From a virus: a stretch of 32,000 bases of DNA. Positions 4,005 through 16,500 of the stretch are shown here, piece by piece; the first letter of the stretch is position 1, and each line of letters starts with the position of its first letter. Position numbers and translations under genes: made by a program. Location: IMG/VR virus record IMGVR_UViG_3300035670_013237, positions 120,001 through 152,000 of that record, one strand, 5' to 3'. Under the pieces are notes generated by a model that had not been told where the DNA came from, ran no database searches, and saw only the letters and a program-made list of their open reading frames with translations.

Positions 4005-4006
4005 AA

Positions 4007-4037
4007 GGTGCAAATCAACATCGAACTGTGTTACAAC
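4007..4037 (+). promoter_or_regulatory. promoter cassette (4081..4398)
   Basis: GGTGCAAATC, 15 nt, TGT-TACAAC. Leader hairpin GGCGGGGA-CGGC-TCCCCGCC 4048-4067, SD GAGGAG. Confidence 0.65.
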
Positions 4038-4080
4038 AGATTCATGAGGCGGGGACGGCTCCCCGCCGAGGAGAACGAAG

Positions 4081-4723: not shown

Positions 4724-4766
4724 TAATTCATGAGGCGGGGACGGCTCCCCGCCGAGGAGAACGAAG

Positions 4767-5417
4767 ATGCCGATCATCGTCAAGAGCAATGGGGAAGAGA
4801 CCACCACCTACACCGGCCGCGTTGTTGAGGTCACCGAGACCCGGGAACAGCGCAACCTGAGCGACACGCTGGACTACAGCGACTGGCAGACCGTCCGGGT
4901 CGTCCATGCCCTCGTCTGGCTCGGCCCCGAAGGCAAGCCGGAGGACCAGTTCACGTGGATTGATTGTTCCAACCTCTTCGCTTGGCGTGGTGAGCCCGTC
5001 AAGACCGCGGTGGTCGACGGCGCTCCCAACAACTTCATGTCGGCCCTCAACCCCGAGGCGCCGCTGATGTGGACCAACCTCACCATCTACAAACAATTCA
5101 AGATTGACGAAGCTCGCGAGGCCGAGGAAGCCCGGGCTCGTCTCTTCGCCCAGGTTGAGGCGGAGCGTCAGGCCTTCGCCGACAAAAAGTCGGCCGCGGC
5201 TCTGAAGCGCCAAGCCACGGACGAGGCCAAGTGCGCCGCCGCGGAAGCCCTGCTCGAGGGTGTGGCCAAGGGTAAGACCTACACCACCAAGGAGGGCTTC
5301 ACTGGAAACCTCTTCTGGAAGGGCGCCAAGAAATATCGCGGCACCTGGTCCGCCCGGGTGGGGCTCAAGGACCCCAACGGCCAGGTGGTCTGGACTAGTG
5401 TGGACCAACTAGTCTAA
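4767..5417 (+). CDS. hypothetical protein (216 aa) with central Ala/Glu-rich helical segment
   Basis: Listed ORF. The upstream cassette is almost identical to that of 4081: promoter 4693..4723, hairpin 4734-4753, SD GAGGAG. Confidence 0.75.
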   Translation: MPIIVKSNGEETTTYTGRVVEVTETREQRNLSDTLDYSDWQTVRVVHALVWLGPEGKPEDQFTWIDCSNLFAWRGEPVKTAVVDGAPNNFMSALNPEAPLMWTNLTIYKQFKIDEAREAEEARARLFAQVEAERQAFADKKSAAALKRQATDEAKCAAAEALLEGVAKGKTYTTKEGFTGNLFWKGAKKYRGTWSARVGLKDPNGQVVWTSVDQLV

Positions 5418-5486
5418 TGGAGGAACTAGTCTCCGGACTAGTCAAATGGACTAGTAAGGCGCCCAACTAGTGGTTGGGCAACTAGT
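5394..5486. promoter_or_regulatory. cluster of seven ACTAGT (RRACTAGTM) sites
   Basis: ACTAGT at 5394, 5408, 5425, 5437, 5450, 5466 and 5481, with spacings of 12-17 nt. It spans the last codons of 4767..5417 and the region upstream of wHTH gene 5582..5905. Sites 5425/5437 form the inverted repeat ACTAGTC-TCCG-GACTAGT. Confidence 0.6.
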
Positions 5487-5514
5487 CCACATGCACCGTG
5501 GAATCTGGTACGAT
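5484..5514 (+). promoter_or_regulatory. degenerate promoter variant overlapped by an ACTAGT site (5582..6093 unit)
   Basis: AGTCCACATG (5 of 7 core matches), 15 nt, TGG-TACGAT. ACTAGT at 5481-5486 overlaps the decamer. Confidence 0.35.
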
Positions 5515-5581
5515 GACACGGTTTGTACGAATGGACTACCTCATGGTAGAATAACCACAACAAGCAAGGAGCAAAGAGAAC

Positions 5582-5905
5582 ATGCGAAAGACTTCTACTA
5601 CCACTGCAACCGCCACTTCCACGAATCGCAACCGCACACCCCGCATTGGTATCACCGTCGCTGAGGTACTTGAAGACCTCATCAGCAATGGCCCCGCCAC
5701 CGAGAGCCAGCTCCTCGGGCCCTATCGCAACGACTCTCGTGATCGTTGGGGCAACTCCCTCTTCCTGGTGGGCGAGGGCCTGGGCTCGGAGGCTTCGCTC
5801 GTGAAGCGAGGGCTCGTGAAGGTGGTCGGGTCGCTCTATCGGGCCCGTGTGTATGACATCACGCCGAAGGGCCGCGCGGCGCTCCGCCGGTACGGGACGA
5901 TGTGA
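5582..5905 (+). CDS. winged-helix DNA-binding protein (107 aa)
   Basis: Listed ORF with SD AAGGAG upstream. ITVAEVLEDLISNGPATESQL...LVKRGLVKVV...YDITPKGRAAL has the helix-turn-helix plus wing pattern of MarR/PadR-like wHTH proteins. It lies immediately downstream of the 7x ACTAGT cluster. Confidence 0.7.
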   Translation: MRKTSTTTATATSTNRNRTPRIGITVAEVLEDLISNGPATESQLLGPYRNDSRDRWGNSLFLVGEGLGSEASLVKRGLVKVVGSLYRARVYDITPKGRAALRRYGTM

Positions 5906-6093
5906 TGAAGACTTTGACAATCCAGCTGGAAGAGGAAGACGTCGAGGTTGTCCTCGAGGCCCTTGAGCTCCTCCACGATAGGCTGCTGGAGTTCGACACA
6001 CACTGGGATAACGATGAGGAAACTCGGAGGGACCTGGAGGCAGTGCGGCGAGTGGGCGCCATCTTCGATACGCTCGGTGTAAATCAATCCTAA
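5905..6093 (+). CDS. small acidic protein (62 aa)
   Basis: The listed ORF starts at GTG 5902. ATG 5905 overlaps the upstream TGA (TGATG). Glu/Asp-rich helical sequence. Confidence 0.6.
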   Translation: MKTLTIQLEEEDVEVVLEALELLHDRLLEFDTHWDNDEETRRDLEAVRRVGAIFDTLGVNQS

Positions 6094-6759: not shown

Positions 6760-6779
6760 TTCCGAAAAAGTGGGGGGAG

Positions 6780-6810
6780 GGTGCAAACCCTCCCGGCTCC
6801 ATGATATAAC
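6780..6810 (+). promoter_or_regulatory. promoter cassette (6857..7093)
   Basis: A-run, GGTGCAAACC in the loop of stem GGGAGGG/CCCTCCC (6775-6794), 15 nt, TGA-TATAAC. Leader TTCATCCGGTGGGGA. Confidence 0.65.
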
Positions 6811-6856
6811 CAATTCATCCGGTGGGGATGGTGCCCTAACCGGCAACGGAGCGAAA

Positions 6857-7093
6857 ATGTCAACGAACGTACTCAGCATCCGGACCATCACTGACCTTCT
6901 TACCCCGGCCGAGCGCAACGAGTTCTGGCATTACCTCGGAGGAGAGGTTACTTCTCGTGAAGCCGAAACCGGGATCGTGGGCCCCTCCAAAGTAAAAGAA
7001 ATCCTGGGGTTCTATATGGATCTCACTGCGAAGGACTCCCGCGACCGCGGCATCGTCTTTCCAAAGGGCGCCAAGTTCCAGCTTGAGCTCTAA
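6857..7093 (+). CDS. hypothetical protein, paralogue family B (with 14003..14248 on the minus strand)
   Basis: ATG 6857 inside listed ORF 6578..7093. Promoter 6780..6810 and leader lie inside the long ORF, so the N-terminal extension is rejected. Shares VLSI.TITD.LTP.E...FW.YLG.EVTS.EA.TGIVGP..VK...PKGAKFQLE with the minus-strand copy. Confidence 0.75.
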   Translation: MSTNVLSIRTITDLLTPAERNEFWHYLGGEVTSREAETGIVGPSKVKEILGFYMDLTAKDSRDRGIVFPKGAKFQLEL

Positions 7094-7109
7094 AAAAGTT
7101 GGGCACGGG

Positions 7110-13566: not shown

Positions 13567-13597
13567 GCTATAACACAAAGGGCCGGCGGTTTGCACC
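13567..13597 (-). promoter_or_regulatory. promoter cassette (13324..13539)
   Basis: The minus strand reads AAAAACTT, GGTGCAAACC in the loop of the 9-bp stem GGCCGGCGG/CCGCCGGCC (13581-13604), 15 nt, TATAGC. Confidence 0.55.
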
Positions 13598-13618
13598 GCC
13601 GGCCCCAAGTTTTTGGGA

Positions 13619-13906: not shown

Positions 13907-13956
13907 TGCGGTTACCCCGTTTTTCCGTGGGGAGGTATTCCCCACCGGATGAATTA

Positions 13957-13987
13957 GTTGTACCATAAGGAGCCGGGGGTTTGCACC
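13957..13987 (-). promoter_or_regulatory. promoter cassette (13619..13906)
   Basis: The minus strand reads AAAAAAAGTG, GGTGCAAACC in the loop of GCCGGGGG/CCCCCGGC, 15 nt, TGG-TACAAC, then TAATTCATCCGGTGGGGA. Confidence 0.65.
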
Positions 13988-14002
13988 CCCGGCGCACTTT
14001 TT

Positions 14003-14248
14003 TTAGCGCTCAAGTTGGAATTTGGCACCTTTGGGAAGCTCGATGCCTTTGATCTCGCGGTCAATGATGTGGCCCAACCCGATTTGGTCCAGGACAAATT
14101 TGACGGTCCGCGGACCAACGATGCCGGTGTCGGCTTCCTTGGAGGTAACCTCGTCGCCAAGGTAACCCCAAAAATCGTCGTACTCCTTGGGGGTAAGGCG
14201 GTCCGTGATGGTTTTGATGCTGAGCACATAGGCGGTTTTGGCAGGCAT
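14003..14248 (-). CDS. hypothetical protein, paralogue family B (inverted copy of 6857..7093)
   Basis: The listed ORF reaches 14254. The second ATG (14248) has better spacing to SD AAGGA and aligns with the start of the paralogue. Promoter 14293..14323, leader 14261-14289. Confidence 0.75.
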   Translation of the reverse strand: MPAKTAYVLSIKTITDRLTPKEYDDFWGYLGDEVTSKEADTGIVGPRTVKFVLDQIGLGHIIDREIKGIELPKGAKFQLER

Positions 14249-14292
14249 TTTCATTCCTTACCGGGAGGATCCATTCCCCACCGGATGAATTA

Positions 14293-14323
14293 GTTGTACC
14301 ATAGGTTGGAGATGGTTTGCACC
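14293..14323 (-). promoter_or_regulatory. promoter cassette (14003..14248)
   Basis: The minus strand reads AAAAAAGTTT, GGTGCAAACC, 15 nt, TGG-TACAAC, then TAATTCATCCGGTGGGGAATGGATCCTCCCGG. Confidence 0.65.
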
Positions 14324-14350
14324 GCCGCAACAAACTTTTTTAAAAGATTC

Positions 14351-14998
14351 TTAGCGGCTCCACTCGAACCCGGGCGCAACTGTGCCGAAGGCTTCGTGCA
14401 CCTTGTCCACCGCCTCCGCATCGATGTGCCGGAGGTCCTCAGCGGTCAGCGCCCTGCCGTCCCTGCGGTCGACCAGCATGTGCACAACCGCGGTGGAGTA
14501 CCGCTGCGCGAGCCCGTCGTGGCTCCGCTCTGACAGCACGCTCCAAGTCGACAGAGCCGCCGTCGGGAGCAAGACAGTGTCCTGCCGAGCGTCCAGGATG
14601 AGACAGATGCTGTCGACGAGCGCTCCGTCGTCTCCCACGGTCCTGTTCGCCACGAGGTCCTCGATCAGCTTCTTGGTGACCTTCTTCGACCACGGGTGCT
14701 CGCAGTGCATCGGGGTGCCCCCCGACACAGGACCCAGGCGCCACCGAGCTCGGTTGTAGCGCGTCTCAGGCCCACGCCACTCGACGGGCAGCTGCGGGAG
14801 CGCATTGGTGGCTCTATTGAAGGCAGTGAGACGGGCACTTCTCTGAAGGCCTGAGACCCCATGGGGAGCTAGTTCATCTCGGACACGCATGAGACCCAAC
14901 CATGCCCGCGCGGTCTCCTTCAGTAGTGCCCAGTACTGGGGCTCTCCGCGGAAGTCAAGCCACTTGCCGTCAGGATCGATGTGCTTCGGTCTAGTCAT
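14351..14998 (-). CDS. hypothetical protein (215 aa)
   Basis: Listed ORF with GC-rich third codon positions. The long upstream control region contains a perfect ACTAGT-bearing inverted repeat. No family recognised by eye. Confidence 0.75.
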   Translation of the reverse strand: MTRPKHIDPDGKWLDFRGEPQYWALLKETARAWLGLMRVRDELAPHGVSGLQRSARLTAFNRATNALPQLPVEWRGPETRYNRARWRLGPVSGGTPMHCEHPWSKKVTKKLIEDLVANRTVGDDGALVDSICLILDARQDTVLLPTAALSTWSVLSERSHDGLAQRYSTAVVHMLVDRRDGRALTAEDLRHIDAEAVDKVHEAFGTVAPGFEWSR

Positions 14999-15100
14999 AT
15001 ACTACCTCGGCCTGGGGAGTGCCACTCCCACTCCCGTCCCTCTGCTTCTCTCATGAAGGTAGTCCATCAAGGAGCCCAGAGAAGCTTCAACTCAGCTCAA

Positions 15101-15128
15101 ACTAGTAGTCACCGGAGAGACTACTAGT
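15101..15128. promoter_or_regulatory. perfect inverted repeat ACTAGTAGTC-N8-GACTACTAGT (operator candidate)
   Basis: 10-bp arms at 15101-15110 and 15119-15128, about 100 nt upstream of the start of 14351..14998. A TCTAGT variant lies at 14990-14995, next to the start codon. Confidence 0.55.
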
Positions 15129-15150
15129 ACACCAAGCGGAGGCTCTTAAT

Positions 15151-15184
15151 CACAAAAGAGAGGGTCCAGGCTGGACCTCTCTCG
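15151..15184 (-). terminator. promoter-proximal terminator-like hairpin in the leader of 14351..14998
   Basis: The minus strand reads GAGAGAGGTCCA-GCC-TGGACCCTCTC followed by TTTTGTGA. It is enclosed by a second 10-bp pairing CCAAGCGGAG/CTCCGCTTGG (15134-15143 / 15189-15198). Confidence 0.45.
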
Positions 15185-15201
15185 CTACTCCGCTTGGGCT
15201 T

Positions 15202-15233
15202 ATTATACAAGGATGGGCCCGGGGGTTTGCACC
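15202..15233 (-). promoter_or_regulatory. promoter cassette followed by terminator-like leader (upstream of 14351..14998)
   Basis: On the minus strand, GGTGCAAACC sits in the loop of the 11-bp stem GGGCCCGGGGG/CCCCCGGGCCC (15215-15242). 16 nt, TATAAT. Confidence 0.55.
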
Positions 15234-15628: not shown

Positions 15629-15931
15629 TCAACCCCCGATGAAGGCCTTCCCGGCCGGGGTCAAGGTCCAAAGGGTGGCGTTCCCCTTCTTACCCGCAGG
15701 CTGGATGAACCCCCGGATGAAGAGGGATGAGGCCTGGCCGTGGCCCGTTGGTCCGCCGAAGTAATTGGTGGTCAACCGAGGGGCGAAGTAGGATTGGCCC
15801 CAGGTTCGATGGCACACCGGCTTATCCCAGGGGATGACCGGCTTCCGCGCCTCGGCGGAAGTGCACCCGGTCGGGCCGGCGGCGGCGATGGTACGAAGGA
15901 TGGTGAGCGCGGTATTTCCGAGATTGGGCAT
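15629..15931 (-). CDS. possible winged-helix protein (100 aa)
   Basis: Listed ORF. Promoter 15980..16010, leader 15950-15974, SD GGAGGAAG. LTILRTIAAAGPTGCTSAEA...GFIQPAGKKGNATLWTLTPAGKAFI resembles an HTH plus wing. Confidence 0.7.
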   Translation of the reverse strand: MPNLGNTALTILRTIAAAGPTGCTSAEARKPVIPWDKPVCHRTWGQSYFAPRLTTNYFGGPTGHGQASSLFIRGFIQPAGKKGNATLWTLTPAGKAFIGG

Positions 15932-16069: not shown

Positions 16070-16100
16070 TTTGTACCATAGGCCATTTTCGTTTTTCACT
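16070..16100 (-). promoter_or_regulatory. orphan promoter cassette with truncated leader
   Basis: The minus strand reads AGTGAAAAAC, 15 nt, TGG-TACAAA, then TAATTCATCAGGTGGGGATGG. It runs straight into the A-run of cassette 15980..16010. Only a 7-codon ORF is present. Confidence 0.45.
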
Positions 16101-16129
16101 AAAATCGAAAATTAGTTTTTTTAAAAAAC

Positions 16130-16160
16130 CGTGTAAAAGGGGCCCCGGCCCCATTATAAT
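16130..16160 (+). promoter_or_regulatory. promoter cassette reading rightward into the ORF-less GGGGCCCC region
   Basis: CGTGTAAAAG, 15 nt (GGGCCCCGGCCCCAT), perfect TATAAT. Divergent from 16070..16100 across 29 nt of A/T. Confidence 0.5.
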
Positions 16161-16250
16161 ACGGGGGCCCCGGGGCCCCCCATTAAGGGCCATTAAATGG
16201 GGCCCCTTAAGCCCCTAAAACCATTGGTTTAAATGGGGGGCCCCGCCCCT
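16140..16250. repeat. array of GGGGCCCC-type palindromes alternating with A/T blocks
   Basis: GGGGCCCCGGCCCC (16139-16152), GGGGGCCCCGGGGCCCCCC (16164-16182), GGGCC (16187-16191), GGGGCCCC (16199-16206), GCCCC (16211-16215), GGGGGGCCCCGCCCC (16235-16249). These are separated by ATTATAATAC, ATTAA, ATTAAAT, TTAA, TAAAACCATTGGTTTAAAT and followed by TAAAAAAGG. No ORF is supported. Confidence 0.6.
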
Positions 16251-16500
16251 AAAAAAGGCAACCTTTGTGGTGCAAAACTGGCGGTGGGGCGCGCTAAGTG
16301 CACTCAAAAATTCTGGAGAAAATTCCGTCACCGTTCACCCCTTGCTCCCGCCCACCTCATGGACTCGTGTCCTCTCGTGTTCCCTCGTCTTCTTAAAAGT
16401 GGGTATGGGGTGGGGGGTGATTCCCGGAGGGCCCCCGGCGTCCCGAAAAATTCTGGAAACATTTTTGGGTTGGAATGGTCCTCGCGGGCGCTCGTTTCCC

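Follow-up and report, generated by a model that had tools for sequence, protein, structure and literature searches.

KorB of RK2 is a global regulator acting at several promoters, the trp operator of E. coli contains the hexamer ACTAGT twice and is read by a dimeric repressor (TrpR) able to bind in tandem, and the pac site of phage P1 carries seven Dam hexamers in 162 bp. Here we describe ACTAGT in a 32,000-nt stretch of viral DNA (IMG/VR record IMGVR_UViG_3300035670_013237, positions 120,001 to 152,000; hereafter the window, numbered from its first letter), which is an early-type region of a novel uncultured jumbo phage. The hexamer is confined to three clusters, the largest being an array of seven sites upstream of a gene encoding a winged-helix protein, and we propose, with roughly even confidence, that the sites are operators and that the array serves a small regulon of three promoters. 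Three described systems resemble such an arrangement in part. The omega protein of pSM19035 has arrays of heptads at three promoters (PMC9499535). Cox of P2 and Apl of 186, winged-helix recombination directionality factors that also act as transcriptional switches, bind cooperatively to five to seven direct repeats at promoters (PMC7498355, PMC11963761), and the published tubC centromere is a split block of direct repeats lying immediately upstream of tubR and covering its promoter (PMC6009700).

Distribution of ACTAGT and its placement on promoters and leaders

A direct count gave 12 occurrences of ACTAGT in the window, restricted to three clusters of seven, three and two sites, exactly where a first-pass annotation of this DNA, made from the letters alone, had located them. 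The sites of the two smaller clusters start at 12950, 12993 and 13013 (cluster 2) and at 15101 and 15123 (cluster 3), and the largest cluster is as follows:

5394..5486, no strand: cluster 1, seven exact ACTAGT sites, starting at 5394, 5408, 5425, 5437, 5450, 5466 and 5481

Dinucleotide-preserving shuffles of the window (n=100) contained 3.1 ACTAGT on average and 7 at most, none of the 100 reaching the observed 12, and the chance of finding at least 4 of 12 randomly placed sites inside 100 bp is about 6.5e-5. When all hexamers of the window were ranked by clustering in an unbiased scan, ACTAGT came second. The first-pass annotation had called for a count beyond the window; extension by overlapping metagenomic contigs to 37,950 bp of contiguous sequence added no further site. 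Its figure of about 60% GC (guanine plus cytosine), used to argue that the hexamer should be rare, applies to the first 19 kb only (about 59%), the window as a whole being 55% GC. The sequence of the seven-site array is 100% identical in a Logan assembly and in a Joint Genome Institute (JGI) assembly, which possibly derive from the same sample.

The position of the clusters can be read against a promoter-like repeat of the form nGGTGCAAAtC-N11-cgTGgTACAAcngAtTCAt, of which a profile search of the window found about 32 copies above 12 bits (shuffle maximum, 13.6 bits); the profile, built from the copies of a strict pattern, can also be given as GGTGCAAAtC-N11-cgTGgTACAAc. The strict pattern occurs 25 times against 0.3 expected, always in intergenic DNA, and a ribosome-binding site and start codon come within the next 40-75 nt. 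The repeats extend from 551 to 31647 of the window, preceding nearly every small gene, and the family is also present in related jumbo-phage contigs. Given this position and their sigma-70-like layout (TGCAAA, 17 nt, TG-n-TACAAC), we infer that the repeats are promoters.

Cluster 2 coincides with a promoter of this family, which precedes the minus-strand gene 12338..12946:

12979..13009, minus strand: promoter of 12338..12946, consisting of GGTGCAAA (13009-13002), a 17-nt spacer and TAGATT (12984-12979); 26 bits
13010..13021, no strand: cluster 2 site, a perfect 12-bp palindrome AGGACTAGTCCT abutting the extended -35 element
12993..12998, no strand: cluster 2 site in the 17-nt promoter spacer, forming the 10-bp palindrome CAACTAGTTG
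12950..12955, no strand: cluster 2 site, 4 nt upstream of the start codon ATG (12946-12944) of 12338..12946

If transcription is assumed to start about 7 nt after the -10 element, the three sites occupy about -46..-41 (abutting the -35 element), -26..-21 (in the spacer) and +18..+23 (before the ATG). Their centres are 20 and 43 bp apart, that is two and four helical turns, with a phase coherence of 0.96, and all three sites thus face the same side of the helix.

Cluster 3 is found in the leader of a second minus-strand gene, 14351..14998, where the following elements were recognised:

15101..15128, no strand: cluster 3, inverted repeat ACTAGTAGTC-N8-GACTACTAGT with 10-bp arms and centres 22 bp apart
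15202..15233, minus strand: strong family promoter GGTGCAAACC ... TTGTATAAT, 19.4 bits, about 100 nt upstream of cluster 3
15163..15177, minus strand: terminator-like hairpin core followed by TTTTG, between this promoter and cluster 3
15057..15067, minus strand: second copy of the 11-mer ATGGACTACCT, between cluster 3 and the gene start
14990..14995, no strand: one-mismatch site TCTAGT, just within the beginning of 14351..14998 (ATG 14998-14996)

The inverted pair, which lies within the 235-bp stretch between the family promoter (15233-15202) and the start of 14351..14998, is helically in phase (22 bp).

Regarding cluster 1, the array and its surroundings contain these elements:

4767..5417, plus strand: gene preceding the array, encoding 216 aa without a family match; sites 1 and 2 fall in its eight final codons
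5391..5489, no strand: nested dyads in the array, TGGACTAGT (5391-5399) pairing with ACTAGTCCA (5481-5489)
5461-5479, no strand: array hairpin GCCCAAC-TAGTG-GTTGGGC
5485..5514, plus strand: weak promoter-like element GTCCACA ... TGGTACGAT, 4.8 bits against the phage promoter profile
5524..5552, plus strand: promoter of the winged-helix operon, TGTACG-N17-TAGAAT, conserved in all relatives
5531..5541, plus strand: exact 11-mer ATGGACTACCT in the spacer of the winged-helix promoter

The seven sites form a repeat block directly preceding the winged-helix gene, 96-188 bp upstream of its start codon. Their spacings (14, 17, 12, 13, 16 and 15 nt) bear out the 12-17 nt reported before, the inverted repeat ACTAGTC-N4-GACTAGT at sites 5425/5437 (5425-5442) is present as described, and the cluster indeed straddles the stop of 4767..5417, sites 1 and 2 being part of its coding end as the codons W-[T-S]-V-D-[Q-L-V]-stop. 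Two other statements of the first-pass annotation had to be revised. The 5' flank of the consensus had been given as RR; in cluster 1 it is S-R (GG, CA or GA), and this flank stands on the plus strand at 7/7 sites, which can be read as direct repeats of about 8-9 bp. The last site had been said to overlap the -35 element of the only promoter candidate; that candidate (5485-5514) scores just 4.8 bits and a better promoter lies downstream at 5524-5552 (TGTACG 5524-5529, TAGAAT 5547-5552). We place the winged-helix promoter at the latter position because this element is conserved in all relatives. Its spacer includes the half-site-like word GGACTACC; the spacers of the relatives' promoters have AACTACT, at positions 2-4 nt apart, and these words look like features of a promoter subclass, though they may be degenerate operators. 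The same spacer holds ATGGACTACCT, which occurs only twice in the window, each time oriented with its gene and with an extended match ATGGACTACCT(T)CATGRKAGAAK, and which further links the control regions of clusters 1 and 3; the 11-mer may be either a degenerate operator or a trait of a promoter subclass.

Taken together, the sites of cluster 2 overlap core promoter elements, those of cluster 3 lie in a leader, and the overlap of cluster 1 with promoter elements is only partial. The sites have the dyad symmetry that would suit a dimeric binder: a palindromic core, the 12-bp AGGACTAGTCCT, the 10-bp CAACTAGTTG and two inverted-repeat pairs.

The DNA around clusters 2 and 3 has two other features of its own. 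A 377-bp non-coding gap (12947-13323) upstream of the cluster 2 promoter is without an open reading frame (ORF) call, and the cluster 2-3 region gave no match in Rfam. At 15140-15233, on the minus strand, the terminator-like hairpin, which is enclosed by CCAAGCGGAG/CTCCGCTTGG, lies about 30 nt beyond the strong promoter; this unit may be a small RNA of about 60 nt or an attenuator located just upstream of cluster 3.

Genes at the clusters and their relatives

The genes that adjoin the clusters, and a paralogue of the winged-helix gene, are the following:

5582..5905, plus strand: winged-helix protein, 107 aa, with an EarA-like Pfam match (E 7e-5), an AlphaFold2 (AF2) model and Foldseek matches
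5905..6093, plus strand: 62-aa protein, its start overlapping the winged-helix stop (ATGA)
12338..12946, minus strand: 202-aa HExxH protein (HEVGHH), first putative regulated gene, conserved in jumbo-phage contigs
14351..14998, minus strand: 215-aa protein, second putative regulated gene, with about 37 representative homologues and an AF2 model of predicted local distance difference test (pLDDT) 92.8
15629..15931, minus strand: winged-helix paralogue, 26% identical to 5582..5905 (E 3e-6)

The assignment of 5582..5905 as a winged-helix protein, made in the first-pass annotation, agrees with both the Pfam match and the Foldseek matches of the AF2 model, a model of moderate quality (pLDDT 70). 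The best match in the PDB is TubR (6aht, E 7e-4, template-modelling (TM) score 0.5), a weak one, followed by many MarR and PadR proteins with roughly tenfold weaker E-values and similar TM-scores; at the sequence level no TubR match was obtained for 5582..5905. In a viral structure library its matches were generic winged-helix proteins, with AspA of pNOB8 and TubR of c-st also in the hit lists. The genes further downstream in this operon region encode products of 62, 39, 82 and 78 aa, among others. The HExxH protein belongs to a family of 48 proteins on contigs of jumbo-phage size and shows faint similarity to zinc peptidases of the ATLF/Zmp1 type. The 215-aa protein has the invariant motifs HCEHPW.K..TK, R138, DG..RY and DR; it has no match in Pfam, NCBIfam or PHROGs, and a fold search with its confident model found no structural neighbour in the PDB.

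Relatives of this locus are few. Five relatives of the winged-helix protein, with 73-81% identity, were found among 5.8 billion sequences. Neither the region nor the winged-helix or HExxH protein has a relative among 50,697 GenBank phages (megablast and tblastn), the two proteins have none in IMG/VR, and a metagenome scan yielded one relative only. In nine relative contigs the gene order is kept, with the homologue of 4767..5417 followed by a spacer, the winged-helix gene and a small gene. The slot that holds the array in the window is variable: in the relatives it is empty or filled with unrelated long inverted repeats, two types of spacer being of just 82-84 bp with the promoter and two others having inverted repeats of 14-15 bp that enclose hairpins. 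The C-terminus of the upstream protein has the same length in all relatives, with W-T-S-V-D-Q-L-V in the window and W-(I/V)-D-A-x-(Q/K)-(L/V)-(P/A) in the relatives; because of this equal length, sites 1 and 2 were written into the codons and not inserted, which argues for selection on the DNA rather than for insertion of a mobile piece.

Phages with quite different upstream sequences share a nearly invariant central segment of the winged-helix protein, and for this reason the protein is not a likely reader of ACTAGT. A search for the binder through recognition residues that co-vary with the upstream motif was given up for the same cause, the winged-helix core being the same next to differing motifs. 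Two or more small winged-helix paralogues and many unclassified small proteins are encoded in the window, and the binder could be 5582..5905, 15629..15931, 5905..6093, 8521..8760 or one of the unclassified small proteins. The product of 5905..6093 was considered as a ribbon-helix-helix protein; the likeness is limited to an N-terminal pattern, and searches of Pfam and of PDB profiles gave no match. This 62-aa protein is about 30% identical to the relatives' 67-aa protein, which is more than 90% conserved among them, as against 73-81% for the neighbouring winged-helix protein. Such divergence, in the only phage with the array, points to fast evolution or replacement of the gene.

ACTAGT also occurs near gene starts in other phages of the group. 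The relative phage L141, which has an 80% homologue of the paralogue 15629..15931, contains 7 ACTAGT in 15 kb against 2.0 expected (1/200 shuffles reached 7); two of them coincide with the -10/+1 region of family promoters, and a leader in the position syntenic with cluster 3 contains a pair (GCTAGTCTAACAACTAGTCTCC). In the relative L134, GACTAGTCCAGG and ACTAGTTGGTG stand 33 nt and 16 nt, respectively, before start codons. A position near gene starts is thus a habit of ACTAGT in this phage group. In more distant relatives the promoter of the HExxH gene is of the same family and lacks ACTAGT. Another repeat was observed in the related phage L135, where the 16-mer TGATTATAACTAGTTG is found three times (1413-1432, 2652-2671 and 6068-6087); at two copies its TGA is the stop codon of the upstream gene, and the third copy spans the junction of two genes.

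Weighing of the possible functions

The first-pass annotation had offered two explanations, a cooperative operator for the adjacent winged helix-turn-helix protein and an iteron array marking a replication origin or a partition site. An operator fits best, all clusters being in promoter or leader regions and cluster 2 bracketing a family promoter with sites in phase, and relatives repeat the pattern on a lesser scale; the part of that proposal which names 5582..5905 as the binder did not hold, since homologues 73-81% identical stand without ACTAGT upstream. We therefore keep the operator without its proposed reader. In this model, a dimeric sequence-specific DNA-binding protein, most likely encoded by the phage, would bind the ACTAGT palindrome and control three units: the winged-helix operon (5582..6093), the HExxH gene (12338..12946, minus strand) and the 215-aa gene (14351..14998, minus strand). 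At the HExxH gene, the three in-phase sites would bracket the -35 element, fill the spacer and cover the ribosome-binding region, so that the occupied promoter would be closed to RNA polymerase, possibly with formation of a small loop. At the 215-aa gene, binding to the leader's inverted pair would prevent transcription from starting or from proceeding. Protein on the seven packed sites upstream of the winged-helix operon would make up an unbroken coat, which could stop read-through from the strongly promoted upstream gene and could also occlude, or titrate the protein at, the operon's own promoter.

Several observations weigh against the operator reading. The hexamer is exact at all 12 sites, its flanks are weakly conserved, and variants with one mismatch hardly exceed expectation near the clusters (4 against 1.7), as is more usual for the target of a restriction or methylation enzyme than for a transcription-factor motif. 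The spacing in cluster 1 is irregular and shows no helical phase preference, and the array ends 38 bp before the conserved promoter rather than on it. In the corresponding spacer of the relatives, 0/9 contigs have ACTAGT and most are without any CTAG, the seven-site array being present in the phage of the window only. The terminator-like hairpin between the promoter at 15202..15233 and cluster 3 makes it uncertain which promoter serves the 215-aa gene. Finally, the neighbouring winged-helix protein, judged by its homologues, is probably not the ACTAGT binder.

The exactness of the sites would also fit a switch read through methylation, in which ACTAGT would be the target of a phage or host methyltransferase and its state would be read at control regions. 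Clusters of the Dam site GATC are read in this manner at oriC, at P1 pac and at some promoters. The 12/12 exact 6-bp palindromes with poor flanks and hardly any degenerate copies fit type II recognition better than a typical operator; however, among the proteins of the window none was recognised as a methyltransferase, a restriction enzyme or SeqA-like, and outside the clusters there are 0 sites where roughly 1.5-3 are expected, numbers with which avoidance is not demonstrable. We regard such a switch as unlikely. A function of the RNA, as a transcript structure or as the target of an endoribonuclease near ribosome-binding sites, would recall RegB of T4, which cuts early mRNAs. The site at 12950, the near-site at 14990 and both L134 sites lie just before starts, the array folds well as RNA (z about -4.5 to -4.6), and no terminator separates 4767..5417 from the array. 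The good fold, however, is largely an automatic product of repeating a palindrome, the hexamer is exact and lacks the compensatory variation that a structure predicts, and the cluster 2 sites, upstream of the -35 element or in the spacer and with helical phasing, make sense only on duplex DNA; this explanation seems to us very improbable. That the array has no dedicated function, its sites being leftovers of a local duplication or of a small mobile palindromic element, could be suspected from its restriction to one lineage and from the variability of its slot. It is opposed by the unrelated sequences between the sites, which are not those of a tandem duplication, by sites 1 and 2 being in intact codons and by the precise position of the other five sites, those of clusters 2 and 3, on promoter elements. 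The unrelated inter-site sequences and the two sites in intact codons led us to discard the mobile element, and we hold an absence of function to be a slight chance indeed.

Two further explanations concern the maintenance of the genome. In a centromere-like block of the tubC type, the array would be coated by a TubR-like winged helix, and the resulting filament would both repress the promoter of the winged-helix gene and anchor the genome to a partner, for instance a phage tubulin. Consistent with this, TubR is the top fold match of 5582..5905, the block lies where tubC lies relative to tubR, and the seven sites share one flank orientation. Against it, MarR and PadR matches have similar TM-scores on a model of only pLDDT 70, relatives keep the winged-helix gene with no repeats or with unrelated inverted repeats upstream, the two other clusters are on promoters of unrelated genes, and no tubulin/FtsZ, actin or Walker-type motor was found among the scanned ORFs of the window and the genes on the contigs that extend it to 38 kb. 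We therefore retain the partition site suggested in the first-pass annotation at a very low probability, on account of the weak top match to TubR. A variant, in which a motorless filament of the array and the TubR-like protein would couple the phage DNA to a tubulin or positioning system encoded elsewhere in the 271-kb genome while the same protein repressed the two other ACTAGT promoters, is a shade more doubtful. As to the origin, an initiator would bind the repeats and melt neighbouring DNA, and the array, with its seven repeats close together, intergenic and alike in orientation, is what such a model would call for. Iterons, however, are about 17-22 bp long and regularly spaced, whereas the unit here is of 6-9 bp, at irregular 12-17 bp distances and unphased. 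The array is 48% GC, with the lowest-GC 40-mer in 5000-5990 still at 40%, no sequence resembling a DnaA box occurs within 19 kb, the GC skew does not change at 5.4 kb, no initiator, helicase or primase was recognised in the flanking genes, most of which are unclassifiable, and the most origin-like stretch lies elsewhere, at 16086-16260. An iteron-type origin at this locus is thus the least credible of the explanations, and on these features that part of the earlier proposal was abandoned.

If the operator reading is true, it defines a small regulon in an otherwise unannotatable early region of an uncultured jumbo phage, comprising the winged-helix operon, a conserved HExxH protein and a protein whose fold is not in the PDB, and ACTAGT would be a simple DNA handle for fishing out the regulator. 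Together with the promoter family of about 32 copies, it would give a first transcription map for this phage group.

Genomic setting and likeness to known systems

Proteins of the window occur on contigs of up to 271,347 bp, and megablast found no nucleotide relative of the window among the GenBank phages. The window carries a MoxR-type ATPase paired with DUF2201; nearly all its other ORFs have no family match, and a DNA ligase and a tail gene lie just past its right end. The remaining assigned genes are:

11689..11764: tRNA gene
27694..27764: tRNA gene
29277..30092: sigma-70-family gene

The GC content falls from about 60% to about 49% at about 19000, a shift that suggests a module boundary, and the GC skew is positive from about 17 kb. 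The GC minimum of the window (17.5% over 40 bp) falls in the stretch 16086-16260, a divergent region between leftward and rightward gene blocks; five or six GGGGCCCC palindromes come next, with ATTAA/TAAA between them. Of all hexamers in the window, GGCCCC is the one that clusters most strongly. One small gene is present together with its promoter in both orientations, as paralogues on opposite strands (6765-7183 and 13939-14303, about 68% nucleotide identity), and several other small genes of the window are also duplicated.

Downstream of many family promoters, a conserved hairpin of the 5' leader, GGYGGGGAYGG..CCCCRCC, precedes GGAG and ATG; this hairpin could be an RNA stabiliser or the target of a regulator. 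In addition, at 13579-13606, 13972-13993 and 7105-7130 a GC-rich hairpin with runs of A or T on its sides has the -35 sequence TGCAAA as its loop, so that one cassette can be read as a promoter or, on the opposite strand, as a terminator. Examples of these elements are:

4006-4045, 7523-7562 and 10258-10297: promoter repeats
13949-13988 and 14285-14324, minus strand: promoter repeats
4045-4075, 4735-4760, 7563-7590, 8227-8255 and others: leader hairpins

Irregular arrays of ACTAGT are also found elsewhere. A scan of 2.9 million viral contigs revealed them between putative genes for the small and large terminase subunits, in two groups unrelated to the phage of the window, and between RusA and a primase-helicase. 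Arrays of 6-12 sites on unrelated contigs are:

L100, 5796-5925
L108, 635-775
L053, 1852-1995
L055, 5063-5115
L116, 4476-4625

The control hexamer AGTACT gave equally many arrays in viral contigs, irregular ones included. The idea of a single widespread ACTAGT system was dropped on this result, which indicates instead that dense arrays of palindromic hexamers are common in phage control regions, each probably read by its own protein. With such irregular control arrays in other phages, the array of the window belongs to an already known kind and changes no general concept.

Compared with the described systems, the locus shares with P1 pac the seven copies of a palindromic hexamer in a short stretch; it differs in its place in an early region remote from any terminase, and the window yielded no methyltransferase. 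With the trp operator it has in common the same CTAG-core hexamer as recognition element, whereas the array is far larger, the organism is unrelated and no Trp-repressor-like protein was detected in the window. The sites of Cox and Apl are degenerate and one helical turn apart (PMC7498355), whereas those of the window have an exact core and are 12-17 bp apart, and no integrase or attachment site was seen in the window. The likeness to TubR-tubC of pBtoxis and of the Clostridium phage c-st (PMC6009700) consists of a winged helix of about 100 aa with TubR as its top structural match and of repeats immediately upstream that reach the promoter region; unlike in those systems, no TubZ gene adjoins it, the match in structure is neither strong nor specific, relatives keep the protein without the repeats, and the motif is also found on two unrelated promoters. 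Regarding omega and KorB, no ribbon-helix-helix protein, ParB-type protein or ParA was recognised in the window, and the presumed binding unit is an exact 6-bp palindrome at irregular spacings of 12-17 bp and not a contiguous heptad as for omega. What the locus has in common with omega and KorB is the use of short repeated sites in arrays at three promoter regions of one replicon, one of these arrays having seven units, and with repressor operators the overlap of sites with the -35 element, the spacer and the ribosome-binding region.

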